Shown: in pieces, positions 5,374-55,704 of the stretch
How positions within the stretch are numbered: the stretch's first letter is position 1
How the letters are laid out: each line of letters opens with the position of its first letter
Virus record (IMG/VR): IMGVR_UViG_3300017917_003852
Coordinates: 14,425 to 78,424 of that record
DNA length: 64,000 bases
Reading direction: 5' to 3' (one strand)
Source: a virus
The notes under the pieces: generated by a model
Told to the model about the DNA's origin: nothing
Seen by the model: only the letters and a program-made list of their open reading frames with translations
Database searches by the model: none
Position numbers and translations under genes: made by a program

Positions 5374-5400
5374 TTTCTCCTTGTTATTCACTATACTGCT

Positions 5401-5429
5401 ATTATAGCAAAATGGGTCTTTTTGGTCAA
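5401..5429 (-). promoter_or_regulatory. early sigma70 promoter, extended -10
   Basis: TTGACC-17-TATAAT with TG extension; 26 bp identical to 9400-9425. Confidence 0.85.
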
Positions 5430-6634: not shown

Positions 6635-6848
6635 GATAATTCCTATAACCTTTTCGCTTGCTTTGTACAGCAATTTGTTCGAAGTTGGCCCAATCGCAAT
6701 ATGCGTATTCGTTCATATTGGATCTTCCCAACATAATTTCCCATAGGTATCGTTTGTTGTTTTTGGTGACACGAGCCTTGGCGCTAGATTCTAATTTATA
6801 CCAGCCCACTGCTTCTTTTTGTTTCACATTATAAACAACAAAACCCAT
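6624..6848 (-). CDS. hypothetical protein
   Basis: ORF track; packed in the operon. Confidence 0.55.
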   Translation of the reverse strand: MGFVVYNVKQKEAVGWYKLESSAKARVTKNNKRYLWEIMLGRSNMNEYAYCDWANFEQIAVQSKRKGYRNYHEF

Positions 6849-6849
6849 A

Positions 6850-7257
6850 TTATATACTCACCTCAAATTTAAAATCGTCAGGGTCATCCACAAGTTGTGA
6901 TTCCTTAACCTCAGTCCAACGACCATCTATCCTAATTTCTAATTTAATCTTTGTTAGTTCGTTAGCCACAGCACGATCAATTTGATCCATCATTCCTGTT
7001 TTTTTGAGGACTTCAAGTCGGTGCCATTTTTTGAACGTTTCCGTTTCACACATTTTGACAAAGGCGTCTCGTTTGTTTTCCAATTGGTTACGACTAGCTT
7101 CACTATAACCTCTGGCCCCTGAGGCCCTGTGCCGACAATGAACTGCGCTGCTAGTCTTATTTCGCTTCTGCCCACCTGCACCGGTTCCTTTGGTGTATGA
7201 CCAATCACAGTCGTCCTTTGTTACGCTAAACAATAATTGTCTTTTACCGTTTTCCAT
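6850..7257 (-). CDS. RF-1 domain peptidyl-tRNA hydrolase (ArfB/PrfH-like)
   Basis: GTGAGGQKRNKTSSAV GGQ motif followed by SRNQLENK. Confidence 0.85.
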   Translation of the reverse strand: MENGKRQLLFSVTKDDCDWSYTKGTGAGGQKRNKTSSAVHCRHRASGARGYSEASRNQLENKRDAFVKMCETETFKKWHRLEVLKKTGMMDQIDRAVANELTKIKLEIRIDGRWTEVKESQLVDDPDDFKFEVSI

Positions 7258-7505
7258 TATACCCACCTTAATGCAAACTCAATTGCATCACGCTCGTTAA
7301 TAAACTGCCACACAACTTGATAGTCGAACTGATCACAGAAATTTCGGTTAATAATACGATCACGCCACCCACACCGACTGGCTTTTACGCCATGCTTTTC
7401 TTTTAACCAGTCCCACATTTCTACATAATGGTACCAATCTCGTGCAATGGTTGCGATACTGTACCGCCACAGTTTTCGATCTCGTCTTCGTTGTCGGCTG
7501 TTCAT
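7257..7505 (-). CDS. FxLRW-family mini protein
   Basis: Ends WQFINERDAIEFALRWV. Confidence 0.75.
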   Translation of the reverse strand: MNSRQRRRDRKLWRYSIATIARDWYHYVEMWDWLKEKHGVKASRCGWRDRIINRNFCDQFDYQVVWQFINERDAIEFALRWV

Positions 7506-7684
7506 GCCCACCTCAATAAAAATGAGGTTAAATCTTGTTCAGTCTTATACACAATACCAGTGGCATAAACTTCGTAGTTGCCATTTTCATCGCACCAATC
7601 TTGCATTGGATCAATTTGAGCCCAGGAGAGCCAGTCATTAAATCCAATATGGTTATAGCGACGATCAATAGTAAATTTACTCAT
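7502..7684 (-). CDS. FxLRW-family mini protein
   Basis: Ends YKTEQDLTSFLLRWA. Confidence 0.75.
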   Translation of the reverse strand: MSKFTIDRRYNHIGFNDWLSWAQIDPMQDWCDENGNYEVYATGIVYKTEQDLTSFLLRWA

Positions 7685-7902
7685 GCCCATCTCAATGCAA
7701 ACATTGTAGCATCATCTTGATTTTTGAACAACCACGAAGACTTACCAAACGCGGTAATTAACGCCCATTGTTTGTCTTTGTTTGAAGTATATAATCCACC
7801 TTCGCCCAATTGCCTGACACACCAAACTATCATATCCTCAACTTCATGATAGCGATCTCGTTCAAAATGTACCTGAAATGGATGCGTATGATCAACGCTC
7901 AT
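7681..7902 (-). CDS. FxLRW-family mini protein
   Basis: Ends WLFKNQDDATMFALRWA. Confidence 0.75.
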   Translation of the reverse strand: MSVDHTHPFQVHFERDRYHEVEDMIVWCVRQLGEGGLYTSNKDKQWALITAFGKSSWLFKNQDDATMFALRWA

Positions 7903-8117
7903 TACGCCCACTTTAATTGGAATAATACAGCATCTTGTTCGTGTTTAAAATACCATTCGGTTTGTTCCTTTGGGCCATCCAAAAATCCTAGTATATCAAT
8001 ACCTAGCTTGTACCATGCTTCGCCAAAAGGGCCTATGTTTTCTTCGCACCACTCCTGTGCCAATGGCCACTCTGGATTGTTAATTATGATGTGGTACCGC
8101 CACTCTGGATCCATCAT
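7902..8117 (-). CDS. FxLRW-family mini protein
   Basis: Ends WYFKHEQDAVLFQLKWA. Confidence 0.75.
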   Translation of the reverse strand: MMDPEWRYHIIINNPEWPLAQEWCEENIGPFGEAWYKLGIDILGFLDGPKEQTEWYFKHEQDAVLFQLKWA

Positions 8118-8386
8118 GTCTGTTTTTTTAACAAGTCCCAAGCTAATCCATCCCAGGGTTCAAACTCAACATCTATCCACCCAGGGTGGTGCCGCGGTTT
8201 TATTTCCCACCACTCATTTTTGGTATCACGATAAACTGTACGGAACTTGGAGCCATAGTATGATTGAACATATTTTATTACCCGCTCGGCATTGTTTGTA
8301 ATGCTCATAAACGGGCCGCCGAGGTCTTCTAAGAACACTATACCGTGTTCTCGGTCTATGGACAAGACATGCAGTTGTGTTCTCAT
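8114..8386 (-). CDS. conserved phage hypothetical protein
   Basis: SITNNAERV...YRDT motif. Confidence 0.65.
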   Translation of the reverse strand: MRTQLHVLSIDREHGIVFLEDLGGPFMSITNNAERVIKYVQSYYGSKFRTVYRDTKNEWWEIKPRHHPGWIDVEFEPWDGLAWDLLKKQT

Positions 8387-8580
8387 TATTCAATTCCAAA
8401 ATGTTCTGACAGCCATTGCCTTGCTTGAAAACGTGCTATCAATTGATTCTCACCCGGATCTAAAACATTCATACATTCTCGTACAATCAACTCAGCGAAT
8501 TTTTCGTTGTCAAAATGAAGTTGTCCTTCCGGACGCTCGTTCCAGCATTGTTCAGCAAGTAGTTTAATTCTTTCGTTCAT
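8386..8580 (-). CDS. MNERI-family small protein (paralog of 25491-25739)
   Basis: MNERI...IVREC...HFGIE. Confidence 0.7.
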   Translation of the reverse strand: MNERIKLLAEQCWNERPEGQLHFDNEKFAELIVRECMNVLDPGENQLIARFQARQWLSEHFGIE

Positions 8581-9368: not shown

Positions 9369-9400
9369 TTGGTACGCTCCTAATTAATTACTATAAACAT

Positions 9401-9458
9401 ATTATAGCAAAATGGGTCTTTTTGGACAACCGTTTTATTTGTTGCAATTTTAGCAACA
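9401..9458 (-). promoter_or_regulatory. early promoter plus upstream palindrome
   Basis: TTGTCC-17-TATAAT; TGTTGC-N7-GCAACA at 9440-9458. Confidence 0.8.
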
Positions 9459-11305: not shown

Positions 11306-12387
11306 GAGCGTAACCACAATACAAAGGGATCATTTACTACAATAGTTCCATCAGCTCTCTGCATATAATTTCCACCGTGTAAATCTATTGCGAATCCTTG
11401 ATCCCTACCAAACTTTGCAACTGTATGAACAGTATCTAATAAATTTTTAGTATTCACTGGCCCACCTAGATATTTAATAACTTTCTTTACGGTGTATGGA
11501 TCAATTGTGCGTTTAACTTCGTTGTAATATTCTCTGCGAGCCAGATCTTTAAGAGCTTGATTAAAGTCGCCATTGGCCATATGATCTATTGCTAGATCTA
11601 TATAACCGACTAAATGCTTTACTTGATCTGGTAATTCTTTTAAAGGTTCCATTCTAGCTTGAATGTAATTCTTACCACCAAATTGAAAACTTTCAAATCC
11701 TGAAAATTTTGGTAAATGCGGATTATCTGTGTTTGCATTACAGTAATCAATCCAATTTATGAACATACGCTGGTCGGGACTAAAATCTTTATGACCTTTA
11801 CGATAGCCAAATATGATCAATACTTGTCCAGTACCTGGCTCTAAGTATGCTTGTTTGTCGATGCCACTACCTAAGTATTTGTAACCTTTATCCATTAATA
11901 CTTTACGAACACCGCCGTGTATTTCTCCGGCCATTTCATCAATCGTATTCCATGCACCCGTAGATTTATCTAATACCTCAGCATCACCAGTGCGTCCTGC
12001 GGTCCAACGTGGTAATTTTTCTTGTGGAATTCTAACTTGTGCATTAGTTGGAATATCCTTCCAAGGGCGCCCAAAATAACCTTCAGCGTCTCCTTGGCTC
12101 CAATATTTTGTATCTGTGTCCCAAGTAGTTTTTCCAGGATTAGGATTTTTTTCAAAATAACCTGATTTTTTAGCTGCCGCTAACTCTTCTGGACTCATGT
12201 TTCTATATACATGAGTTACATCGTCGGGACTTCCAGGTACTCGACCGCCGAACATTCCGCCCTTGGGTTGATCAATATAATTTTTTACCTTAGGGGCCTG
12301 ACCCGCTGCATAATCAACAGCATCCTTACCTAGTTTCCATAACCAGGACCGTAGTCCGCCTTCATCTAAAAAATCATCTGCTCTCAT
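11302..12387 (-). CDS. leader-bearing fusion: ART-like domain plus kinase-like domain
   Basis: MRADDFLDE; HVYRNMSPEE...YWS; YLGSGIDK, DLHGGNYM, VNDPF. Confidence 0.6.
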   Translation of the reverse strand: MRADDFLDEGGLRSWLWKLGKDAVDYAAGQAPKVKNYIDQPKGGMFGGRVPGSPDDVTHVYRNMSPEELAAAKKSGYFEKNPNPGKTTWDTDTKYWSQGDAEGYFGRPWKDIPTNAQVRIPQEKLPRWTAGRTGDAEVLDKSTGAWNTIDEMAGEIHGGVRKVLMDKGYKYLGSGIDKQAYLEPGTGQVLIIFGYRKGHKDFSPDQRMFINWIDYCNANTDNPHLPKFSGFESFQFGGKNYIQARMEPLKELPDQVKHLVGYIDLAIDHMANGDFNQALKDLARREYYNEVKRTIDPYTVKKVIKYLGGPVNTKNLLDTVHTVAKFGRDQGFAIDLHGGNYMQRADGTIVVNDPFVLWLRS

Positions 12388-15299
12388 CTTGCTGGCACAA
12401 TCGTAAATGGACCGCGATCTCTAACATCGCGAGGTGCAGTAGTGGTCATCCACTGTCTTGCATATTGGTTAGCGTCGCCTTGGTTTGTGGTGTTAATAAA
12501 CGAATACACTTCTTGATCGTTACGATCTAATATTAACCAACGTGCATTACCCGGTGGCAAGCTACCTGTACCTTGTGCTTGATTTACCGGCTCAGCTTCG
12601 ATGTTTCTAATGTAATAACCATTGGCGTCTAATTGCCTACGCACATAGTCCATAGCAGCATTGGAATTCGCTGCTGACACAGTTACATTAGTAGTTCTAC
12701 CATCTGTTCCAGTGTAAGTTACACGATATCGTTCTTGCCCAACACTACCAGCTGGAACCGGTTCTCCTGTTGTTGCTGGTATTGCACGTTGTCTTGCAAG
12801 TTCTGCACTGCTACCGGGAATACCTCTACCCTCTATACGACGCCAACCATAAGTTTCTGTATCATCATCTATACCGCGTCCTGCTAACCAATCAGAATAT
12901 TTTCTCGATGCTTCTTGATCTGTATTGGCAATAAATCTAAACACAGGACGATATGGTACTGTACTACGATCTACGATTTCGTAATTAGCGTCAGAACTTT
13001 GTTCGCCACCAACCGCAGGGAAGTCACGCCCTGCACTAGCAGGTTGGCCACTAAGTAAGTATGCACGATTTTGTTCCATGTCGATGATACGAATATCTTC
13101 GCGAGGAATTCCGCGTCTATTCCTTATATTATCTGCTATAGTTTGAATATAAGTCCATGTGCCTTGCTGCCCAGGAAGTAATACTTCACCGTCGTAATTA
13201 TTAATGATAGAATAAATTGCCGGACCTGGTCTATTGGTGCTGCCGGATTCTCTTGATCGCATCTGTGGGCGAACATAAACAGGATCATCAAATCCTGTTT
13301 GCTCTTGCCATCTTGCAGCATGACGCTCGGCGTCGGCAACCAAATTACCAATACCACTTATAGTATGAACAACTTCATTAGAGTTTCTACTTACTACTTC
13401 CCAAGTGCCGGTAAATTCTTGATCTTGGCTTCTTGGTGTTTGCTGTGTATGTCTTTCTACGCGAATGTCAGCAAATGGCACATAGGAGAATCTACCTGGA
13501 TGTTCCATAGTCGCTATTTGTCGTGCCGCATAGTCTGATGTGGCACGAACTACTACTCCGCGTTCTCTGTCGTGTTCAGGATAAACCAAATAGTCTCGTG
13601 CATTAGAATCTGGCTCATTCGCTTCAATTGACGCAATTTCTAATTCAGTAGCTGGTCGTTGAGGTACTGCACGCCATCCTCGTGTAAATTCTTCCACGGA
13701 TCGTCCTGCAATGTTCAGACTCCACTTTAATATAGCACGAGCTTTAGCTTGTTCGGGACTGGTAGCAATGACTTCGGTACCTTGGCTTTGGTAAGGCGAG
13801 TCTGGAGAACCAAACACCATCCAAACAAATGGTACATCTAAGTTTGCATCGCCTTGTTGTTTTCCAATTTGTCGCTTCTGCTGAATTTGTCGAACAAAAC
13901 TCTTTAGTGCTTGCTTAGGCAATTCACCAGCTGCATATTTGGCAAAGTATTGAATACTATCATCTTCTTTGCCTTGTGTTAAAGTCTTATATAACTTTTT
14001 GTAATATTCTTGTTTATATTCTTCGGGCTTGGTAGCAACATCTAATGCCACCACAGCTCGCAATAGTGTGTTCTTAACATTACCTATACTGCCGCTACCG
14101 CTCATCCAGTCTCCGCCCGGACCTCGGAATTCAATCCACTTGTCACGATTATTAATACTGGTAAATTTCTCTGTTGATCCGGTGTGTAGTATTTTGCTGG
14201 CTAATTGATTAAGACCACCTTGGAACTGTCTCATCATTTCTTCAACACGATCTGGATTGTTTCGTGCTTGCAACACAATTTTCTTTAGCGCAGATTTACA
14301 GTAAGTATTACCTTCACGACCAAATTGTTCAAGAACGTAATTGTCGCCTAAGAACATGGCCAACTTTACATAATCAAGATTCTGTTGATTAGGAACGCTA
14401 ACATTCATATGTAAGCCGGTGCTGTCATTAGTATAAGCACCTACTCTATTAGCCCACTTTATCACCTTATCTATATCCGACAGCATTTCGGGAACGGTCA
14501 ATGGAGGACTAACGAACTCTAAGCCAGACTCACCATCGTCACCGTGTAAGCTACCATCAGGTTCTACTACATAATGCCCAGGTCGTCTTGTGGCACCATG
14601 ATAGCTAGATGCAGAATTCACCGGACGATCTATTGCATTACTAAAATCATCAGCTATGTCATCGATGCTAGTTCCACCGCCACCATAATAGTCTGGCTCG
14701 GTCCAATATGGCCATTCTAGATCATATTCGTTAGCAAAGCTTGACATATATTCTATGTCTTCCTCTTCTAGATATTCTACAAATCGATCGTCGGCTTCGT
14801 CATTAAATTCATCTAATAGCTGCTCGCGAATATCGTCTTCGTGTTCGTCGATGTATGCTCGAAGAGCGATTTCATATTCTTCAGTGGTGTCGTAATCGCC
14901 TTCACTTACATATTCTGTGGCAATTTCCAGTGCTCGCTCATTCCCAGAGTCAGAATCCATCCACTCGTTGAACTTTTCATCCATCCAGCCCCAGAAGTTT
15001 TCATTGAGTTCATCAATTTTTCTTTGGATCACCCCGGTGCTGCTGCCCATCGAGCCGCCACGGAAGAAACTAATGACATCTCTCGCCCACCCGGGTCCAG
15101 TAGGAAAACTCTCATCATACTCGTAGTCAGGTTCAGATTCAAACTCATCTTCTTCATCACCAAAATAATTCGGAACAATCAATTCAAATTCCATGCCTAC
15201 TCGAGCATCAATATTTGCTGCCATTTTTGTTAAATTAGTTGGGCTCATATTAAGCTCAAATAATTCATCTTCACTTAAATTAAATTCGCGATATCTCAT
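12384..15299 (-). CDS. putative amidoligase (COOH-NH2 ligase) with C-terminal repeats
   Basis: GMEFE, EPDGSL, GLEFVSPPL, STGLHMNVS, IEFRGPG; MRYREFNLSE leader. Confidence 0.8.
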   Translation of the reverse strand: MRYREFNLSEDELFELNMSPTNLTKMAANIDARVGMEFELIVPNYFGDEEDEFESEPDYEYDESFPTGPGWARDVISFFRGGSMGSSTGVIQRKIDELNENFWGWMDEKFNEWMDSDSGNERALEIATEYVSEGDYDTTEEYEIALRAYIDEHEDDIREQLLDEFNDEADDRFVEYLEEEDIEYMSSFANEYDLEWPYWTEPDYYGGGGTSIDDIADDFSNAIDRPVNSASSYHGATRRPGHYVVEPDGSLHGDDGESGLEFVSPPLTVPEMLSDIDKVIKWANRVGAYTNDSTGLHMNVSVPNQQNLDYVKLAMFLGDNYVLEQFGREGNTYCKSALKKIVLQARNNPDRVEEMMRQFQGGLNQLASKILHTGSTEKFTSINNRDKWIEFRGPGGDWMSGSGSIGNVKNTLLRAVVALDVATKPEEYKQEYYKKLYKTLTQGKEDDSIQYFAKYAAGELPKQALKSFVRQIQQKRQIGKQQGDANLDVPFVWMVFGSPDSPYQSQGTEVIATSPEQAKARAILKWSLNIAGRSVEEFTRGWRAVPQRPATELEIASIEANEPDSNARDYLVYPEHDRERGVVVRATSDYAARQIATMEHPGRFSYVPFADIRVERHTQQTPRSQDQEFTGTWEVVSRNSNEVVHTISGIGNLVADAERHAARWQEQTGFDDPVYVRPQMRSRESGSTNRPGPAIYSIINNYDGEVLLPGQQGTWTYIQTIADNIRNRRGIPREDIRIIDMEQNRAYLLSGQPASAGRDFPAVGGEQSSDANYEIVDRSTVPYRPVFRFIANTDQEASRKYSDWLAGRGIDDDTETYGWRRIEGRGIPGSSAELARQRAIPATTGEPVPAGSVGQERYRVTYTGTDGRTTNVTVSAANSNAAMDYVRRQLDANGYYIRNIEAEPVNQAQGTGSLPPGNARWLILDRNDQEVYSFINTTNQGDANQYARQWMTTTAPRDVRDRGPFTIVPAR

Positions 15300-26478: not shown

Positions 26479-26811
26479 TCAATTCCACATTAAGGCAATA
26501 TGACTAGCATAAATGGCATGTTTCGCTCTCATCCGGATAGTTAGACGTCCGTTTTGTTCGCCGGTTTCGATATTTCTTCCGTGCCATGCTAATTGCCAAT
26601 CCCAATCCCAACCTTGGCGTCCGATCCATTGTTCTAAAAATGGACGGTAATGATCATTTGGGTCTGCGGATTCGAACCCTATCCAAACAGCTCCACCTAA
26701 GTCTGCCCATCGGGGATCATTATGATCTACTACTATTTCGCCTGAAGGCCATTTTACATCTATTTCAATGTAATCAACTAACCACCAATATAATTTTTTA
26801 AAGATGCTCAC
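26479..26811 (-). CDS. divergent FxLRW-family-like protein
   Basis: FLEQWIG...WDW...ASHIALMWN. Confidence 0.5.
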   Translation of the reverse strand: MSIFKKLYWWLVDYIEIDVKWPSGEIVVDHNDPRWADLGGAVWIGFESADPNDHYRPFLEQWIGRQGWDWDWQLAWHGRNIETGEQNGRLTIRMRAKHAIYASHIALMWN

Positions 26812-27010
26812 GGTACGGATAAACCTTTCTTACACGATAATTATGACAATGAGAACAATAACGAGTTTGGATATATTTGTCTGTATTTTTATTAACTTGA
26901 TATGGCTTACACCACCGTGTCCAAGAATGCCAACCAAAGTTGCACCAAAAACTAGTTACTAGTGGTTCTTCATCCTTTAATATCCTAGCTGTATTTTCAA
27001 CTTCGTTCAT
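26798..27010 (-). CDS. small Zn-binding phage protein
   Basis: WCNFGWHSW...RYCSHC. Confidence 0.6.
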   Translation of the reverse strand: MNEVENTARILKDEEPLVTSFWCNFGWHSWTRWCKPYQVNKNTDKYIQTRYCSHCHNYRVRKVYPYREHL

Positions 27011-27240
27011 TTTACCCCAAATTTTAAAGCAAATAGTATAGCAGGTTCTTCCCACTCAAATTGAAAAATATCGTAAGTTCGTTGATGCACACTTCCCCAT
27101 TCTACATGAAAACGACGAAAGTGTTTTCCTTCAGTATTATAGTTTAAACACCAGTTATACATTTCTTCTGTGCATTTTGGCACACGAATTCTATACCTAA
27201 AATACGGACGATGCCCACCTTCGCAATGAAAGTATTCCAT
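27007..27240 (-). CDS. FxLRW-family mini protein
   Basis: EMYNWC...FQFEWEEPAILFALKFG. Confidence 0.7.
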   Translation of the reverse strand: MEYFHCEGGHRPYFRYRIRVPKCTEEMYNWCLNYNTEGKHFRRFHVEWGSVHQRTYDIFQFEWEEPAILFALKFGVK

Positions 27241-27617
27241 TAGTAATTGTACTCAAACGTACCCCAACCTAGTAAGGTTCTAGGTGTGTTTTTTCGAGCT
27301 TGTATCCACATGTAACCATCTTTGTCGTATTCGCTAAACCAATCTACATAACTTTTGTTGTAAAGAATATCTTGCATTTCCCAAAGATAATTTTTTGGAT
27401 ACTGATAACATGGATCGTCTCCTTTGTATCGACGCCGCATCGGCAATTTTTGCGATGGGTGTTCTGATAGTACCATCAAAAGATGCTCTTGTTCTAACTC
27501 CTTAAGGGTAATAGGAACGAAGTTTGCCTTATGATACAAACTAGGCAAAGCTCGATCGACCACTTTGTTGTAATCGTATTCTCGAATAATAACTCTGCGT
27601 CGTAATTGTTTCTTCAT
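27240..27617 (-). CDS. hypothetical protein
   Basis: ORF track; ATGA-coupled. Confidence 0.6.
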   Translation of the reverse strand: MKKQLRRRVIIREYDYNKVVDRALPSLYHKANFVPITLKELEQEHLLMVLSEHPSQKLPMRRRYKGDDPCYQYPKNYLWEMQDILYNKSYVDWFSEYDKDGYMWIQARKNTPRTLLGWGTFEYNY

Positions 27618-27862
27618 GCAAACCTCAGTGCAAATTTTACAGCAATTTGTGAATCATCAAACCAAAATATATTGCCCGTCCATGAATAACGATTAGGATG
27701 ATTTTTACTAAGCCAACCGTGTATTTCGCCCCATTTCATATAGTTGGCGTGTATTGGAATATAGCCGGCACGCTCAAACTGTTCGCAGTGAGTTTCATGT
27801 ACCACAGGAGAACCGTCGAGCTGTGTCCGAATAAATGTTCTAATCGGTATTAACTCACTCAC
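27614..27862 (-). CDS. FxLRW-family mini protein
   Basis: FWFDDSQIAVKFALRFA. Confidence 0.75.
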   Translation of the reverse strand: MSELIPIRTFIRTQLDGSPVVHETHCEQFERAGYIPIHANYMKWGEIHGWLSKNHPNRYSWTGNIFWFDDSQIAVKFALRFA

Positions 27863-28119
27863 GCAAACCTCAGTGCAAATTCTGTAGCAGCCTTTTCGTC
27901 TCGAAAGACAAACATAGTATCTGTAGTTTCTAAATCCTCTACATCACCTACAATCCATTGATTATAATAGCACCAGTCGTCACCGTTAAGCCAGTGGTTA
28001 ATCGATCCTTCTCGACCGCCATAACGAGCACTGCCTTGTCCGGCATTTGCTGCTAGCCAAGATTCAATTTCCGCCTTTTTATCTCGCATTGTGTTGAAAG
28101 GTACTTTAACTTTGTTCAT
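27859..28119 (-). CDS. FxLRW-family mini protein
   Basis: FVFRDEKAATEFALRFA. Confidence 0.75.
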   Translation of the reverse strand: MNKVKVPFNTMRDKKAEIESWLAANAGQGSARYGGREGSINHWLNGDDWCYYNQWIVGDVEDLETTDTMFVFRDEKAATEFALRFA

Positions 28120-28372
28120 TGCCTGCCCATCTTAATAAGAATAATGCTTTTTGTTTCTTATTACTAAAATAAAAAGTTTTATTATAGTATCCCCACTCAT
28201 CTTCCATGACTTCATCTAACCATTTGCAGCGTTGGACAATATCGTCATTATATAATAAAGTATCATACATCTCATACGATTCCGGATATTGCAGTTCTAG
28301 CAGCAAAGTTTGGTCCATGGCATCAGCTAGTTCCTTTGCTACTCGATTTACATATTCTTCTGCTATGTCCAT
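28106..28372 (-). CDS. FxLRW-family mini protein
   Basis: FYFSNKKQKALFLLRWA. Confidence 0.75.
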   Translation of the reverse strand: MDIAEEYVNRVAKELADAMDQTLLLELQYPESYEMYDTLLYNDDIVQRCKWLDEVMEDEWGYYNKTFYFSNKKQKALFLLRWAGNEQS

Positions 28373-28617
28373 TATGCCCACCTCAATAAAAACCAAGCGA
28401 ATTTCTCTTCATTAACAACTCTATAATCTTCGATAGTTATTAACCTCGCGTCCATTTCTATTTCTATACCATACTCATCTAGTATGCGATGCAATTGTGC
28501 GTCATATCTTGGACTGCCGGTGATTACTCGTGCTTGCCCGGTAATGGGCCAAGATCGGTGCTGCCCTTCTTCGTTCCATTCTCTACTTAGAATTTTCTGT
28601 AGTTCGCCGGGTGTCAT
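28372..28617 (-). CDS. FxLRW-family mini protein
   Basis: VVNEEKFAWFLLRWA. Confidence 0.75.
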   Translation of the reverse strand: MTPGELQKILSREWNEEGQHRSWPITGQARVITGSPRYDAQLHRILDEYGIEIEMDARLITIEDYRVVNEEKFAWFLLRWA

Positions 28618-28823
28618 GCCCACCTCAATGCAAAATGTACAGCATCTTCTCTATTTTCAAATTGAATAAATTTGTCAGTAGTCCAACCAGGATTGTGAAA
28701 ATACATACCTGTGCAATTCTCTTCTAACCACCGATCAACTAACCAATCCTTGTAACTGCGACGAAATCGGCTTTGGATATTATCGTAATCGTATTTGGCA
28801 TATACTACTGTGTGTAAAGGCAT
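28614..28823 (-). CDS. FxLRW-family mini protein
   Basis: IQFENREDAVHFALRWA. Confidence 0.75.
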   Translation of the reverse strand: MPLHTVVYAKYDYDNIQSRFRRSYKDWLVDRWLEENCTGMYFHNPGWTTDKFIQFENREDAVHFALRWA

Positions 28824-29020
28824 TATCCGCCCCACCTAAGCATAAAGAATGTAGCATCCTCTTGACGCTTGAACACAAAGTAAAGACCGTTGTTGCGCCA
28901 ATTGCCACTTTTAAAATTCTCGTAGCAAAATCTCTGCAACCTTTCGGATTGCCCCCAAGCATCTACTTCAGGAAGCATACGAAATTGATGCGGCCAATAT
29001 TTTTTATTATAGGTTTGCAT
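28823..29020 (-). CDS. FxLRW-family mini protein
   Basis: FVFKRQEDATFFMLRWGG. Confidence 0.75.
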   Translation of the reverse strand: MQTYNKKYWPHQFRMLPEVDAWGQSERLQRFCYENFKSGNWRNNGLYFVFKRQEDATFFMLRWGG

Positions 29021-29291: not shown

Positions 29292-29673
29292 AATAATCCT
29301 CTACCACAACCCAACCTAACTTTTGAAAGTCTTCTCTAATCTCATCAGTAATAACACTTTCTGCTACATACTTTCTTAGATCAAATCCTTGCGCTAGTGC
29401 TGCTTCGTAGTCAATTTCTTCTGGATTGCCGCGAATACCCGAACAATACCAATTCATGTAATCACCTTCGCACCGAATGTCGGCAACTACGCCACCGGCA
29501 TAGCGCCAAGTACAGGACCATATAGCATCTTTAAGTATAGGCACGACTTCCATTTTTTGGAATGCATTATTGCATAGTGCGGCATAAAGATTTTGTGAGT
29601 ATGCGTCACTGGCACGTACTTTATCCACAAACCACTTTGCGTCTTTCATGTCTCGTTCTAAATTGTAATCCAT
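29278..29673 (-). CDS. conserved phage hypothetical protein
   Basis: YSQNLYAALCNN...WSCTWRYAGG...DYMNWYCSG. Confidence 0.7.
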   Translation of the reverse strand: MDYNLERDMKDAKWFVDKVRASDAYSQNLYAALCNNAFQKMEVVPILKDAIWSCTWRYAGGVVADIRCEGDYMNWYCSGIRGNPEEIDYEAALAQGFDLRKYVAESVITDEIREDFQKLGWVVVEDYYDEI

Positions 29674-29867
29674 TATTGTCCTTCCCATTTTAACTGAAAT
29701 AACATTGCATCCTGTTCGTTGGTGAATTCAAACTCGTATCGAAGATACCAATCTTCATCCGCAAGTTCGCTTTCATATACTAGCCAACAAACAAAACTAG
29801 GGCAATTTTCTCTTGCCCAAGTTGAGAGTTCAATCTCGTCGATGTCAAATAATACTACTATTGCCAT
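29673..29867 (-). CDS. FxLRW-family mini protein
   Basis: FEFTNEQDAMLFQLKWE. Confidence 0.75.
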   Translation of the reverse strand: MAIVVLFDIDEIELSTWARENCPSFVCWLVYESELADEDWYLRYEFEFTNEQDAMLFQLKWEGQ

Positions 29868-30094
29868 TTTAGTAAAAAATTACTAGCGTCTGCTTCGTTT
29901 TCTATAACTACCACCATACCTTGTTGATGTTTCCGTCCGTTAGGCAAGCACTGATCCATCCATGCATATATTTCTGGCTCATTGTCCGTCCACCAACGAA
30001 AGTCAGTGATGATTATGTAATAATATGGCATCTCTTCATCAAACGGACCGGTGGCGATAAATCTGCCTTTGTCGTCTGGAAACACTACGCTCAC
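29858..30094 (-). CDS. FxLRW-family mini protein
   Basis: IENEADASNFLLKWQ. Confidence 0.75.
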   Translation of the reverse strand: MSVVFPDDKGRFIATGPFDEEMPYYYIIITDFRWWTDNEPEIYAWMDQCLPNGRKHQQGMVVVIENEADASNFLLKWQ

Positions 30095-30535
30095 TGTTTT
30101 TGTTCCTTTTCTTTAGGTGCTTTTACTGCACAAATGGCAACAAAGCCTTTGCCATCCCATTCTTTACGAGCATCCATACACGCTTGATAATCGGGATATT
30201 CTTTTTTGTAAATGAATTTTATTTGTGGTGGCGGATCAGTCCAAAGTTGCACAACCAATATCCAAGGCATTAAGTCTAACATATCAGTTCCTTAATATTT
30301 CAAAAGTCCATTTAGCACTATCGGGATCTACTTCAAACCATAATTGATTACTTTCGTCTAGCCATACAGTAAAACCTTTACTGGTAAAAAAATCTACAGC
30401 AATTTGTTTAAATCGTTGATCATCGTAGTCAGGAATAGTTTTAGCTTCTTTTTGAATAGCATGTAGTTCATTGGTATAATAATTTAGAATATGAGCGTGA
30501 AACCATTCGGGTGCGTATCTAAAAGAGAATTGCAT
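30091..30535 (-). other. two small hypothetical ORFs (30091-30282; 30284-30535)
   Basis: ORF track; the second is a possible distant FxLRW relative (ends WTFEILRN). Confidence 0.55.
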
Positions 30536-30536
30536 T

Positions 30537-30761
30537 TCAACTCCACCTTAACAAAAAAGTCATCATTTCTTCTTCAGTATCAAACTGCCAAAGATCGAAA
30601 CTCATACGACGCCCACAATTATGTTCTTGGCACCACTCTTGTGCGGGCATTAACATGTGCTCACGCAAGCCAGTTGGTGTTACTGCACCATGTTCGTGAG
30701 CTAATTGTACTCTTAACCAATAACCTTGAGGGCGAGGCCAAGACTCCCATACTAATTTCAT
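30537..30761 (-). CDS. FxLRW-family mini protein
   Basis: AQEWCQE...WQFDTEEEMMTFLLRWS. Confidence 0.75.
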   Translation of the reverse strand: MKLVWESWPRPQGYWLRVQLAHEHGAVTPTGLREHMLMPAQEWCQEHNCGRRMSFDLWQFDTEEEMMTFLLRWS

Positions 30762-31108
30762 GTTATTTTTATTCTGTCAGTATTGGCTCTATTGCTATAC
30801 ACTTTATAACCGCGCTCTCGCATTAGATCTGCTGCTGCCTGAGGACTGTCATCGAACATTAGTTCGAGATCCTCTTTAGTAATATCATTGCTGCAATCGA
30901 TGGCGTACAGTTCATAATGCCGCTGACTATTAACTCTGGCCCTTAGTAGCATTTGTTGAAGCATACCATTCATTGGATTGCGAACAGGCTCTTCGTCATT
31001 GAGAATCCTAAAAGTATTTTCTGCGTCCCAGTGTTCATACTGAGTGATAGGAATAATGCTTTCTAGTCCTTCTTCACACCAATAAACAAGATATGCGTTA
31101 GTAGTCAT
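30758..31108 (-). CDS. conserved phage hypothetical protein
   Basis: WCEEGLE...LRARVNSQRHYELY. Confidence 0.65.
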   Translation of the reverse strand: MTTNAYLVYWCEEGLESIIPITQYEHWDAENTFRILNDEEPVRNPMNGMLQQMLLRARVNSQRHYELYAIDCSNDITKEDLELMFDDSPQAAADLMRERGYKVYSNRANTDRIKIT

Positions 31109-31332
31109 AGATATTTTATTTGAAAAAATGTTGCTCGAGCCGGATCGTCAAAGTCTAATCTAATATCAGTTGCACGTTGATTATATTCATCGTAACAAAA
31201 ATGTGTTCTAACTGTAAAACCCAATTCTCTTTTTAAACGCCAGGTTATTAAAAAAATTTTATCGCCGTGCTCGTTCTCAATGCGTTGGCGCAAAGTTTTC
31301 CATTCTGGTTTGCTAAAGATCAAAGTGGTCAT
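31105..31332 (-). CDS. FxLRW-family-like mini protein
   Basis: LDFDDPARATFFQIKYL. Confidence 0.65.
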   Translation of the reverse strand: MTTLIFSKPEWKTLRQRIENEHGDKIFLITWRLKRELGFTVRTHFCYDEYNQRATDIRLDFDDPARATFFQIKYL

Positions 31333-31337
31333 ACTGC

Positions 31338-31366
31338 ATTATAGCAGTATATTTAGATTAGGTCAA
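31338..31366 (-). promoter_or_regulatory. early sigma70 promoter heading mini-gene array B (leaderless first gene)
   Basis: TTGACC-17-TATAAT with TG extension; ATG 5 nt after the -10. Confidence 0.8.
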
Positions 31367-43539: not shown

Positions 43540-45807
43540 TTAATTTCCTAAGTTATATTGTGAATCAACCATTTGTTGATGGACACGGTCGCTGCCCCCA
43601 AATAATCCTCGACCTGACGGTGAATCAACAGTGCGTTGATTATTATAAATTGAATATGGTTTATACCCTGCGGCATCGGGTAATATAAATCGATTATAAT
43701 TATCAAATCCCGGCGTATAACCCATTGCTTGAATAACTACATTCTGTACTTCTACTTGTGCTGCCATATCTGCTGCTTTACCCATTTCATTGGCCAAGTC
43801 TTTACCTTTTTCTACTGCTTCTTTTTTAGCTGCCTCGCGGCGCTGTTCTGCTATTTGTTCTCTAGTTGTAGTAGGTCTTGTTGGACGAATGCCATCGTCG
43901 GGTGCTTTGACAGTTGTAGTAGTTTCTGTTTTTTTAGTTTCTTTTGTAGTAGTTTCTTGATTGACCGCAGTAGTAGTTGGTGCTGGAGCAGTTAATTTAA
44001 CTGCTGCTGCCGGACTTGCTTCATTTGTAGTAGCAGTGCTCTTGGTTGTTACCACACTATTAACTACTGGATCTGATACTGTTGGTGCTGCTTGTGCCAC
44101 CGGATCACTAGTTGTTTGTGCCACTACTATAGTAGTTGTTGATTCGGTTACTGTAGTTGTAGTAGAACCAACATTTAAAATATTTTTCTTAGCATAAGCC
44201 TCGGCATAGTTAGGACATTGTTTGCTGTACAGTCCATCAAGACTACAATCATAAGCAAATTGATATCCTGGGCAATATGTAGCATATAAAGGACTTGCTG
44301 CACAACTAGCTGTTGCAGTTTGATATGCCGGGCAATATGAATGTGACAATGGGTCTGCGTTACACTCTGTTGCTGCATTTGCATAGCCAGGGCAGTACGA
44401 ACCGTATAATGGGTTTGAACTACATTCTGTTGTTGCAGTTTGATATGCCGGGCAGTATGAATATGTTAATGGATTTGAATTGCATTCAGACAATGCTGTA
44501 CTGTACCCCGAACATGCTGTACTATATAATGGATTTAAACTACACTGATAAGTTAAATATGCTGCGGCATATCCTGGACACGCAGGATCTGACAGTTGAT
44601 TTGCATTACATTGTTGAGTAAATATGGCTGCGGCATATCCTGGACAATTAGGACTATATAGCGCACTAATTGAACATTGTTGAGTAAAGTATGCTTGCTC
44701 ATATCCAGGGCAACTTGGACTAGATAATGGATTTACGGTACAAGGATCTGGTGTATAAACAGCGGTACTATACATATTTGTAATACTAGCGGAACCAGAT
44801 GTCCATGGATTCATACTAAACGTTCCTAGTGTGCTCATTGGCACTGATGAACTTAATCTATATTCTTTAGAATATGTTCCGCTGGTTCCGTTATTGCCAC
44901 CATTGTGTGTTTGATTATCTGTGTAAATTGTTGTTCCGGAACTGTTTGTTAGTGATGTATGAACACCGGCGTCAGAATAATTATAACCAGTTAAGCAAAA
45001 CCCAAATATGTCAAAGAAGGAACAGGTTCTTCCAGCAACATTATAATTGTAGCCATAGTTGAAACCATGTATAGTTGCACCAGCGCCGGCTAATGCTAGT
45101 GCAGAATTGATTGCATAGGCCTGGGGGCCTGTAGTGCCGGATAAAAGATTTTCACTAATACTTACGGTATTATAGTTTGCACAGGTTGGATTATATGCAG
45201 GATTTGAATAACAAGGATCTACAGTATAACGTAGTCCTATACTAACGTTACGAATTTCTGGTCCAAAATATCCTGCCCAGAAGCCGCCGTCTTTCCCGCT
45301 AAATTGTACAGTTAAGTTTCCAAAATCGCTTACCGGTCCAGGATTAGCATAATTTATAATACCACTAAATGTAGTCCAGTCAATTTTAGTACTGTAAATC
45401 CAACTGTCAGTTCTACGTATTGTGCTGTTATTGGCGGCATAGGTATTAACTGTTGCAGTTAGTGTGTCGATACCACCTTGTCGATTATCACCATTCATGT
45501 TACGAATATCCCATGAATAGCTATAACCTTGAACGGTGATTCCTGCACCAGCATTCTGTAACGCTTGATTTATAGCGAATGTCTGTGCTACTGTTGCTTG
45601 TCCATAACTAAAGTGAATAGTGTTAGTGGATGGGTCATAAAGCGGTTGTGGTCCGCCTGGCATGTATCCTGGTGGCAGCGGCCCTGTAGTGGCACCAGTC
45701 CAGGTATGTGTAGTACCTGACGTTATTTGGTTAGGTGTCGTTTCTACAGTCTGAGCGCCTACTGAAATAAACAACCCCAACAATAAAATTGTTAGGATTT
45801 TTTTCAT
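43540..45807 (-). CDS. secreted protein with tandem Cys-rich repeats and Thr-rich stalk
   Basis: Signal peptide; about 10 repeats of C-x-x-[ND]-P-L-x4-C-P-G-Y; T/A/P-rich linker. Confidence 0.8.
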   Translation of the reverse strand: MKKILTILLLGLFISVGAQTVETTPNQITSGTTHTWTGATTGPLPPGYMPGGPQPLYDPSTNTIHFSYGQATVAQTFAINQALQNAGAGITVQGYSYSWDIRNMNGDNRQGGIDTLTATVNTYAANNSTIRRTDSWIYSTKIDWTTFSGIINYANPGPVSDFGNLTVQFSGKDGGFWAGYFGPEIRNVSIGLRYTVDPCYSNPAYNPTCANYNTVSISENLLSGTTGPQAYAINSALALAGAGATIHGFNYGYNYNVAGRTCSFFDIFGFCLTGYNYSDAGVHTSLTNSSGTTIYTDNQTHNGGNNGTSGTYSKEYRLSSSVPMSTLGTFSMNPWTSGSASITNMYSTAVYTPDPCTVNPLSSPSCPGYEQAYFTQQCSISALYSPNCPGYAAAIFTQQCNANQLSDPACPGYAAAYLTYQCSLNPLYSTACSGYSTALSECNSNPLTYSYCPAYQTATTECSSNPLYGSYCPGYANAATECNADPLSHSYCPAYQTATASCAASPLYATYCPGYQFAYDCSLDGLYSKQCPNYAEAYAKKNILNVGSTTTTVTESTTTIVVAQTTSDPVAQAAPTVSDPVVNSVVTTKSTATTNEASPAAAVKLTAPAPTTTAVNQETTTKETKKTETTTTVKAPDDGIRPTRPTTTREQIAEQRREAAKKEAVEKGKDLANEMGKAADMAAQVEVQNVVIQAMGYTPGFDNYNRFILPDAAGYKPYSIYNNQRTVDSPSGRGLFGGSDRVHQQMVDSQYNLGN

Positions 45808-48638: not shown

Positions 48639-48881
48639 CTATTTTGGATTCTTAAATTCAAATCTGTGTGATGCATAAGAATGTGGTTCCCAAGTTAATG
48701 CAAATTGTGTATATTCTTTATCGTTATTAAGGCACAACCGAAATGTATATTTGTGTATTTTGGTTCGATATTTAATATCGTATTTTTCAGCCCAAGCTTC
48801 AATATCTTTTTTAATTAACTGAAGAGCATGCTGTGCAGACATTCCGCCTGCACCCATTGGCAAGCGAAATTCAATATACAT
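48639..48881 (-). CDS. orphan FxLRW-family-like protein
   Basis: DIEAWAEKY...LNNDKEYTQFALTW. Confidence 0.55.
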   Translation of the reverse strand: MYIEFRLPMGAGGMSAQHALQLIKKDIEAWAEKYDIKYRTKIHKYTFRLCLNNDKEYTQFALTWEPHSYASHRFEFKNPK

Positions 48882-55619: not shown

Positions 55620-55704
55620 TACGCTCCTTATTAATTACTATACCAATATTATAGCAAAATGGGGAATTATGGACAACCAAAAAAAGTGTTGCTTTTTAGC
55701 TATG
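55620..55704 (-). promoter_or_regulatory. early promoter cassette
   Basis: TTGTCC-17-TATAAT (55676-55648); near-identical to 9373-9416 and 5729-5752. Confidence 0.85.

Follow-up and report, generated by a model that had tools for sequence, protein, structure and literature searches.

Why should neighbouring small genes of a phage end on nearly the same few codons, and why should these codons run straight into the start of the following gene? This question was raised by a cluster of genes in the window, i.e., the whole 64-kb stretch of DNA that was analysed, which comprises bases 14425-78424 of a linear viral contig of 78.4 kb. The contig has a GC content of 38%, and about 140 of its 146 called genes are located on the minus strand. 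CheckV estimated its completeness at about 20%, and therefore, the phage genome is probably near 400 kb in size. The weak matches of a giant protein with an amidoligase domain to Agrobacterium phage Atu_ph07 and Ralstonia phage RsoM2USA would fit the view that the contig is a fragment of a jumbo phage. Among GenBank phages, neither positions 6800-8400 of the window (megablast) nor a member of the gene family described below (tblastn) had a match.

A listing of the open reading frames together with an iterated HMM identified 14 clear paralogues in the window, all of them on the minus strand and 62-96 aa long. Four are arranged head-to-tail in array 1, which occupies exactly the range 7257-8117 that had been delimited in a sequence-only reading of this DNA. 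The other ten are found between 27007 and 30761, in the array 2 region. The pairwise identity of the paralogues is only 21-37%. They have in common a central W-[CL]-x-E-N helix and a C-terminal block, F-x-F-x-N-E-x-D-A-x-x-F-x-L-[R/K]-[W/F], and all 14 end with F-x-L-[R/K]-[W/F]-x-stop; beyond the block, nine members have one further residue and five have two to six. The anatomy of array 1 and its surroundings was directly apparent from the DNA:

9401..9429, minus strand: promoter-like site, TTGTCC-17-TATAAT with TG, heading the array 1 operon (consensus match only)
7902..8117, minus strand: family member 1 of array 1; tail L-K-W-A, spelled TTA AAG TGG GCG TAA; next start in TAATG; ATGA overlap of its own start with the non-family gene upstream
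7681..7902, minus strand: family member of array 1; tail L-R-W-A, spelled TTG AGA TGG GCA TGA; next start in ATGA
7502..7684, minus strand: family member of array 1; tail spelled TTG AGG TGG GCA TGA; next start in ATGA
7257..7505, minus strand: last member of array 1; tail spelled TTA AGG TGG GTA TAA; TAATG fusion to the non-family RF-1 domain gene
6850..7257, minus strand: RF-1 (GGQ) domain gene, not a member of the family; its start is preceded by the Shine-Dalgarno (SD) motif in the family tail at 7257

The array 2 region is larger and more varied:

31338..31366, minus strand: promoter-like site, TTGACC-17-TATAAT with TG, 11/12, heading the array 2 operon (consensus match only)
30537..30761, minus strand: first clear member of array 2; tail spelled TTA AGG TGG AGT TGA; the next ATG, of a non-family gene, lies at 30535, 1 nt past the stop
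29858..30094, minus strand: family member; tail L-K-W-Q, spelled CTA AAA TGG CAA TAG; next ATG inside AAATGG; no SD motif
29673..29867, minus strand: family member; tail L-K-W-E-G-Q; a non-family gene follows at TAATG, with GAAGGA upstream
28823..29020, minus strand: family member; tail spelled CTT AGG TGG GGC GGA TAA; next start in TAATG
28614..28823, minus strand: family member, basis of the AlphaFold2 model; tail spelled TTG AGG TGG GCA TGA; next start in ATGA
28372..28617, minus strand: family member; tail spelled TTG AGG TGG GCA TAA; next start in TAATG
28106..28372, minus strand: family member; tail five codons longer, R-W-A-G-N-E-Q-S, with AGA for Arg; next ATG 13 nt before the stop and 14 nt downstream of the Arg codon's first base
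27859..28119, minus strand: family member, L-R-F-A variant; tail spelled CTG AGG TTT GCG TGA; next start in GTGA
27614..27862, minus strand: family member, L-R-F-A variant; tail spelled CTG AGG TTT GCA TGA; joined as ATGA to a non-family gene of 125 aa (27240-27617)
27007..27240, minus strand: divergent member; tail L-K-F-G-V-K; ATGA overlap with the next open reading frame; weak SD motif

Promoters or terminators of the individual units are absent, and a single strong promoter-like site is found at the head of each operon.

Direct reading of the tails agreed with the earlier description of L-R-[W/F] ends that use AGG and are fused to the next start. The Arg of the tail motif is encoded by AGG in 8 of 10 cases and by AGA in the other two (7681 and 28106); four tails contain Lys instead of Arg, encoded three times by AAA and once by AAG. 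The codon bias was clear: AGG accounts for 7.4% of the Arg codons in the 78-kb contig versus 8/10 at the motif (binomial p=3.5e-8), and elsewhere in the same 14 genes it was found at just 4 of 62 Arg codons (Fisher p=1.7e-6). The next start is joined to the tail in all 14 cases, as ATGA in five, TAATG in five, GTGA in one, and as a near variant in three. In the near variants, the start lies 1 nt past the stop, inside AAATGG, or 13 nt before the stop of a lengthened tail. A frameshift or fusion reading of the ATGA junctions was rejected by inspection, because there is no slippery site and each unit has its own start.

Tight junctions of the ATGA and TAATG type are common in this phage genome regardless of the family; the 139 same-strand neighbour pairs include 68 with a spacing of -20 to +5 and 42 with ATGA or TAATG. 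The family tails differ from the other tight junctions in the SD motif. A 4-nt SD core is present in just 25 of the 55 non-family tight tails, and the mean predicted SD pairing is -5.85 kcal/mol after family tails versus -3.78 kcal/mol at these other 55 junctions (p=0.004). The family genes that are located behind a non-family gene mostly have poor SD motifs (0.2, -1.5, and -2.2 kcal/mol among five), and therefore, the SD motif is a property of the family's tail. Four tails in the window, with Lys or AGA, have a weak SD motif or none and are still fused.

The tails also contain exact repeats, all of which turned out to be as claimed before: 7504-7522 is identical to 28374-28392, 27618-27636 is identical to 27863-27881, and 7681-7701 matches 28614-28634 at 20 of 21 positions. 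The two 19-bp junction repeats are among only 11 maximal exact repeats of at least 17 bp in 64 kb. In a simulation that kept the peptide of each tail and drew the codons from family-wide preferences, a mean of 1.23 near-identical tail pairs was obtained, compared with the 3 observed pairs (P=0.11). On this basis, the exact 19-bp repeats were rejected as a sign of recent recombination or gene conversion. Convergent constraint explains them without recombination; the shared codons do not stem from shared descent, because the paralogues are so dissimilar.

How far does the family extend beyond this phage? A profile of the 14 members was searched against 1.84 billion representatives (E <= 1e-3) and retrieved 2113 clusters at the 50% identity level, nearly all of them viral. 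Among the best 150 of the 2113 matches, the proteins are 51-151 aa long, and in most, the profile match reaches the last residue or comes within a few residues of it. In these best 150, the ending is L-R-W in 114 and L-K-W in 29, with one further residue in 104. Searches of Pfam-A and PHROGs v4 with ten tested window members and 94 diverse members yielded no match at E <= 1e-3, and the matches in the ESM Atlas were exclusively viral "hypothetical protein" clusters. Together, these searches point to a very large, uncatalogued phage family whose proteins measure 60-95 aa.

For a comparative analysis, either degenerate peptide patterns or the unrelated RF-1 gene served as seeds for fetching 122 loci from collections of viruses and metagenomes. 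The family HMM detected 613 members on 71 of the 122 loci. Their strand was always that of the seed match, and as many as 27 were packed into 12 kb. Clustering at 60% identity resulted in a non-redundant set of 358 members. The lone match in a bacterial genome (L123) is a 6.4-kb contig with 17 chained family genes in a Bacteroidetes metagenome-assembled genome. Bacteroidetes hardly use SD motifs. The assignment of a host from this match was rejected, and the contig is most likely a mis-binned phage fragment.

The relatives showed the generality of the tail spelling. Their junction consensus is TTG AGG TGG nCA TGA, in which GAGGTG sits 5 nt ahead of the overlapping ATG. In the 358 non-redundant members, AGG was found at 195 of 280 Arg codons of the motif, compared with a background of 7.3%. 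G is the third base of the Leu codon in 79%, A is the third base of the last codon in 165/200, and TGA is the stop codon in 149/200. The next start lies at -1 to +5 in 299 of the 358 members, and the junction types are ATGA (208), TAATG (42), and GTGA (17).

The dependence of this spelling on the context was equally evident. AGG was used in 185/242 tails with a fused next start (-1 to +5) versus 10/38 tails without one (p=3e-9), and in 188/249 tails (76%) with a start 8-15 nt past the Arg codon versus 7/31 (23%) of the others (p=1e-8). The Lys tails behave alike, with AAG in 25/57 fused versus 2/21 non-fused cases. The switch can occur within one locus; in L003, four non-fused tails use CGA or CGT, whereas the fused tails use AGG. 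In longer tails with AGG, the start is found 10-13 nt after the Arg codon, well before the stop; the start follows the SD motif and not the stop. The window member at 28106, which has AGA for Arg, is laid out alike, with 14 nt from the Arg codon to the start.

The sequence-only reading had proposed that every unit provides for the initiation of translation of any gene behind it. The comparative support for this proposal is strong, as the spelling is family-wide and tied to the distance of the start. It covers any type of following gene, as AGG is used to the same extent before family genes (111/144, 77%) and before non-family genes (71/93, 76%). Because the use of AGG depends on the start distance and is equal before both types of genes, these comparisons strongly support the view that the synonymous sites of the motif are adjusted so that GAGGTG(G) is placed 5 nt ahead of the next ATG, for translational coupling.

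Coupling at stop and start codons that overlap (ATGA, TAATG) with an intragenic SD motif is an established principle (Huber et al. 2019, PMC6728339; review PMC12548453). When the intragenic SD motif was removed from five overlapping gene pairs of E. coli, reinitiation was cut by 60-90% in three and abolished in a fourth, and coupling is possible without an SD motif in some gene pairs (PMC6728339). We suggest that the arrays work in a similar way. In units that are directly followed by a gene, the five last codons read TTG AGG TGG nCA TGA. With this spelling, GAGGTG and an additional G.U pair would form a 6-7-bp SD helix, placed 5 nt ahead of the ATG overlapping the stop. On ending unit n, a ribosome would be held and would restart on unit n+1. 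Such termination-reinitiation coupling is the most likely mechanism by which we infer the motif to drive initiation; alternatively or additionally, a 30S subunit may bind the junction de novo. Each unit would thereby bring an initiation signal for any gene placed behind it, whether it belongs to the family or not. The conserved junction of 15-25 nt might also serve as a short homology for the deletion, duplication, and exchange of units, a part of the proposal that we regard as about equally likely to be right or wrong. As a whole, the data are very probably best explained by two operon-embedded arrays whose tail motif doubles as the ribosome binding site (RBS) of the next gene. A phage-encoded tRNA-Arg(CCU) for the decoding of AGG was not found on the contig, which has only a tmRNA and an amber-suppressor tRNA.

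The role of the tail in the protein was approached by structure prediction. An AlphaFold2 model of the member at 28614..28823, built on an alignment of 94 sequences, had a mean pLDDT of 83 and the order beta-alpha-beta-beta-alpha, and a ferredoxin-like fold of this type is predicted for the family proteins. The motif is located at the end of the last helix, which ends with D-A-x-x-F-x-L-[R/K]-[W/F], usually plus one residue, and W68 is conserved in more than 90% of the 94 diverse members. Foldseek against the PDB gave a best E value of 0.25 (KH-like), and a wide VIA-align search gave only generic ferredoxin-like, ACT, or RRM-like resemblances with Z <= 5.7. No function was deduced from these resemblances. 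From the position in the operons, the sigma-70-like promoters, and the expansion of the family, the proteins look as if they might be early host-interaction factors. The peptide motif is itself under selection, as it is kept with CGN, AGA, or AAA when nothing follows closely.

This last point bears on the possibility that L-R-W is a by-product of selection for a nucleotide RBS, the amino acids simply following from GAGGTGG. The strongest nucleotide conservation of the genes does lie exactly at the tail, and the only codon for Trp forms part of the SD motif. However, the non-SD codons with which the motif is kept in the absence of a following start are as diverse as CGA, CGT, CGG, AGA, and AAA, and the replacements of Arg by Lys and of Trp by Phe or Tyr are conservative for the protein but harm the SD motif. 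In addition, the motif ends a confidently modelled helix after the conserved D-A-x-x-F, and W68 is highly conserved. We regard a by-product as quite improbable. Still less credence can be given to the idea that AGG and the identity of the junctions reflect recent common descent or gene conversion of the paralogues rather than selection for an SD motif. The neighbours at 27614 and 27859 share the rare CTG AGG TTT and are probably tandem duplicates, as this idea would predict, but the paralogues at large are 21-37% identical and their nucleotide identity collapses just outside the tail. Moreover, the bias recurs in 71 loci, and the codon choice switches with the context inside a locus, as exemplified by the non-fused CGA and CGT tails of L003.

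The SD-like sequence could also act on the upstream gene, by a pause before termination, a frameshift, or readthrough. Ribosome pausing has been proposed for SD-like sequences inside open reading frames, and the +1 frameshift of prfB is stimulated by an SD-like element; in addition to these precedents, a gene with an RF-1 domain is located just downstream of array 1. Yet GCA TGA contains no slippery site, the bias is governed by where the next start lies and not by where the stop lies, and 45 related loci showed no consistent linkage of the RF-1 gene with the family. An action on the upstream gene is therefore, in our estimation, very unlikely, and a tail that serves as the RBS of the next gene remains the preferred reading.

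The sequence-only reading had gone one step further and proposed that the conserved junction offers microhomology for the expansion and shuffling of the arrays without an integrase. Breakpoints were compared between pairs of loci with at least 85% nucleotide identity. In the array regions, five phage pairs yielded 14 indel or replacement events with 28 breakpoints. As had been anticipated, the breakpoints between near-identical phages sit at the junction: 25 of the 28 are at most 25 nt away from the 3' end of a gene, which is a family tail there, compared with a null expectation of 10-19%. The controls were regions that lack the family; there, 14 of 26 breakpoints are at most 25 nt away from gene ends (null 7-12%), with microhomologies of 4-12 bp. 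The difference between the arrays and the controls is significant (p=0.006).

Three events are clean indels of one unit with an in-register crossover inside a tract of 17-39 bp common to both flanking junctions. L003 contains an extra gene in comparison to L004 (L003 3007-3213) that has TTGAGATGGGCATGAAA on both flanks, and L004 has a single copy of TTGAGATGGGCATGAAA, with the crossover inside. L004 also bears a recent duplication of one unit. L122 contains 217 bp more than L113; the aligned blocks on either side share an overlap of 39 bp, with the crossover located in the junction motif. In the third case, L019 contains 425 bp more than L018, and the tail in L018 is an in-register hybrid of two diverged tails. 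In the window itself, the RF-1 gene shows nucleotide homology to seven related contigs that sets in at 7244-7265, i.e., at the junction, and extends to 6849, i.e., to the stop; therefore, the RF-1 gene behaves as a mosaic unit that is joined at the junction. The idea that the RF-1 gene is specifically linked to the family was rejected, as the upstream neighbours in 45 loci are varied and include few family tails.

The proposal of integrase-free shuffling thus stood in part. The junction breakpoints, the three in-register indels, and the lack of a match to PF00589 (tyrosine integrase) on the 78-kb contig, which represents only about 20% of the genome, are in its favour. On the other side, this evidence is correlative, control breakpoints are also found at gene ends, and the 19-bp repeats are not in excess. 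The junction is a plausible, if unproven, site of recombination. The breakpoints would fit a selection filter as well, because in coupled, overlapping chains, only events from junction to junction keep the neighbours intact. A filter of this kind plus ordinary mosaicism at gene boundaries might account for all breakpoints, and the conservation would then be due wholly to the protein tail and the RBS. It agrees with the control regions, where breakpoints near gene ends and short microhomologies occur without the family, and with the repeats in the window, which the simulation reproduced often enough (P=0.11). Furthermore, gene boundaries in the arrays almost always consist of a family tail, which makes boundary and tail inseparable. 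However, the enrichment is stronger in the arrays (25/28 versus 14/26, p=0.006), and in-register indels of one unit inside tracts of 17-39 bp are the signature of repeat-mediated deletion and duplication. We consider the selection filter to be a serious possibility that falls somewhat short of an even chance. The same guarded assessment applies to the fullest version of the shuffling proposal, in which the L-R-W tail is a portable "plug" that both expresses a gene inserted behind it and supplies in-register homology for adding, deleting, and swapping units.

The arrays can be compared with three known systems. They share with classical termination-reinitiation coupling the co-directional genes with 4- or 1-nt overlaps, and the SD motif that is located at a normal spacing within the final codons of the upstream gene and shapes the codon choice there. 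In contrast to the individual gene pairs of that system, the SD motif is here written into the C-terminal motif of a family with thousands of members, every copy carries the portable signal, and the codon choice toggles with the context. The second system is the promoter-early stem-loops (PeSL) of T4-type phages, which mediate the shuffling of modules in hyperplastic regions (Arbiol et al. 2010, PMC2839356; PMC4122927). In both cases, each small non-essential gene is bordered by a short, conserved signal for expression, and this signal coincides with breakpoints of insertions, deletions, and replacements between close relatives, without a site-specific recombinase; in the arrays, the junction consensus TTGAGGTGGnCATGA is found at nearly every gene boundary. 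The signal of the arrays differs in that it is translational (SD motif and start) instead of a promoter and terminator stem-loop, and in that it lies inside the coding sequence and is shorter, with about 15-25 nt. Integron cassettes are similarly promoterless single-gene units, lined up in one orientation after a shared promoter, and whole units are gained or lost. In the arrays, however, no attC-type site was seen, no integrase was found on the contig, the units are homologous to one another, and the joining element is a coding tail that would act as an RBS. There is no room for a separate attC site because the genes overlap by 1-4 nt.

Taken together, translational coupling, codon choice shaped by a downstream SD motif, and regulatory motifs as points of shuffling are known principles. 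What is new is the form that they take here: in a huge, uncatalogued protein family of jumbo phages, the shared peptide motif doubles as a portable RBS. As a natural example of dual coding, it is exceptionally clean and backed by strong statistics, with a peptide motif and an RBS in the same 9-15 nucleotides, and the synonymous codons switch on or off according to the presence of a following gene. The results provide a start-site rule for gene callers in such arrays, and the motif could be a ready-made modular coupling element for synthetic operons. The family, with its 2113 clusters, can fill most of a 12-kb region. If the junction guides recombination, it would explain how hypervariable arrays of early genes in jumbo phages are built and reshuffled without a dedicated recombinase. 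Should the tail indeed be a portable plug, the arrays would constitute an integrase-free cassette system that rapidly diversifies sets of small host-interaction proteins.

Array 1, the four minus-strand family genes at 7257-8117, directly precedes a gene for an RF-1/GGQ-domain protein. Homologues of this protein are encoded on 45 viral contigs, and the borders of the gene are the exact limits of DNA-level similarity, so it moves as a single-gene mosaic unit. An exact repeat of 17-26 bp (TATTATAGCAAAATGGG...) has several intergenic copies in the window, and the copy at about 9400 belongs to a promoter-like site at the head of the array 1 operon. The minus-strand reading of the repeat (...TTTTGCTATAATA) is an extended -10 box, and the repeat is probably the early-promoter consensus of the phage.

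Features in the window and, for the tRNA, on the full 78.4-kb contig (G000:C1):
220-639, minus strand, tmRNA called by ARAGORN, asterisk-flagged
6850-7266, minus strand, RF-1/GGQ-domain protein of 138 aa (PF00472, E=3e-11, peptidyl-tRNA hydrolase type)
12384-15299, minus strand, Amidoligase_2-domain protein of 971 aa (PF12224)
31105-31332, 26479-26811 and 48639-48881, minus strand, candidate very divergent family relatives
43540-45807, 755-aa ORF with internal direct repeats
5400-5425, 9400-9425, 55647-55663 and 5729-5752/55637-55660, exact matches (17-26 bp) of the promoter-like repeat
G000:C1:9625-9700, outside the window, CUA tRNA (ARAGORN)

The tag peptide of the tmRNA is ANAANDEVFALAA. 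The CUA tRNA, an amber suppressor labelled Pyl by ARAGORN, is the sole tRNA on the contig; a tRNA-Arg(CCU) for AGG codons was not found on this contig fragment. Among GenBank phages, the Amidoligase_2 protein has relatives only in the jumbo phages Atu_ph07 and RsoM2USA, where they are annotated as hypothetical proteins (30% identity across about 250 aa). Exact direct repeats of 24 bp (44311-44334/44431-44454) and 20 bp (44561-44580/44627-44646) suggest that the product of the 755-aa ORF is internally repetitive.

The 6.4-kb contig DLXM01000070.1 (L123:1-5316) is made up of 17 family genes in unbroken succession, with junctions fused as in other family arrays. Its placement in the Bacteroidetes MAG UBA11400 is probably a binning error for a piece of phage DNA and should not be used for host assignment. 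Two phages that are about 94% identical (L003:1-12198 and L004:1-12198) are separated by at least five unit-level events within 12 kb.

The three candidate relatives, with the tails F-F-Q-I-K-Y-L and I-A-L-M-W-N and an internal F-A-L-T-W, were sub-threshold in the family HMM (E ~1), and possibly represent far-diverged members. In L003, the L-[R/K]-W motif terminates about 27 of the 36 ORFs, more than the HMM detected, and thus profile searches under-count the family.
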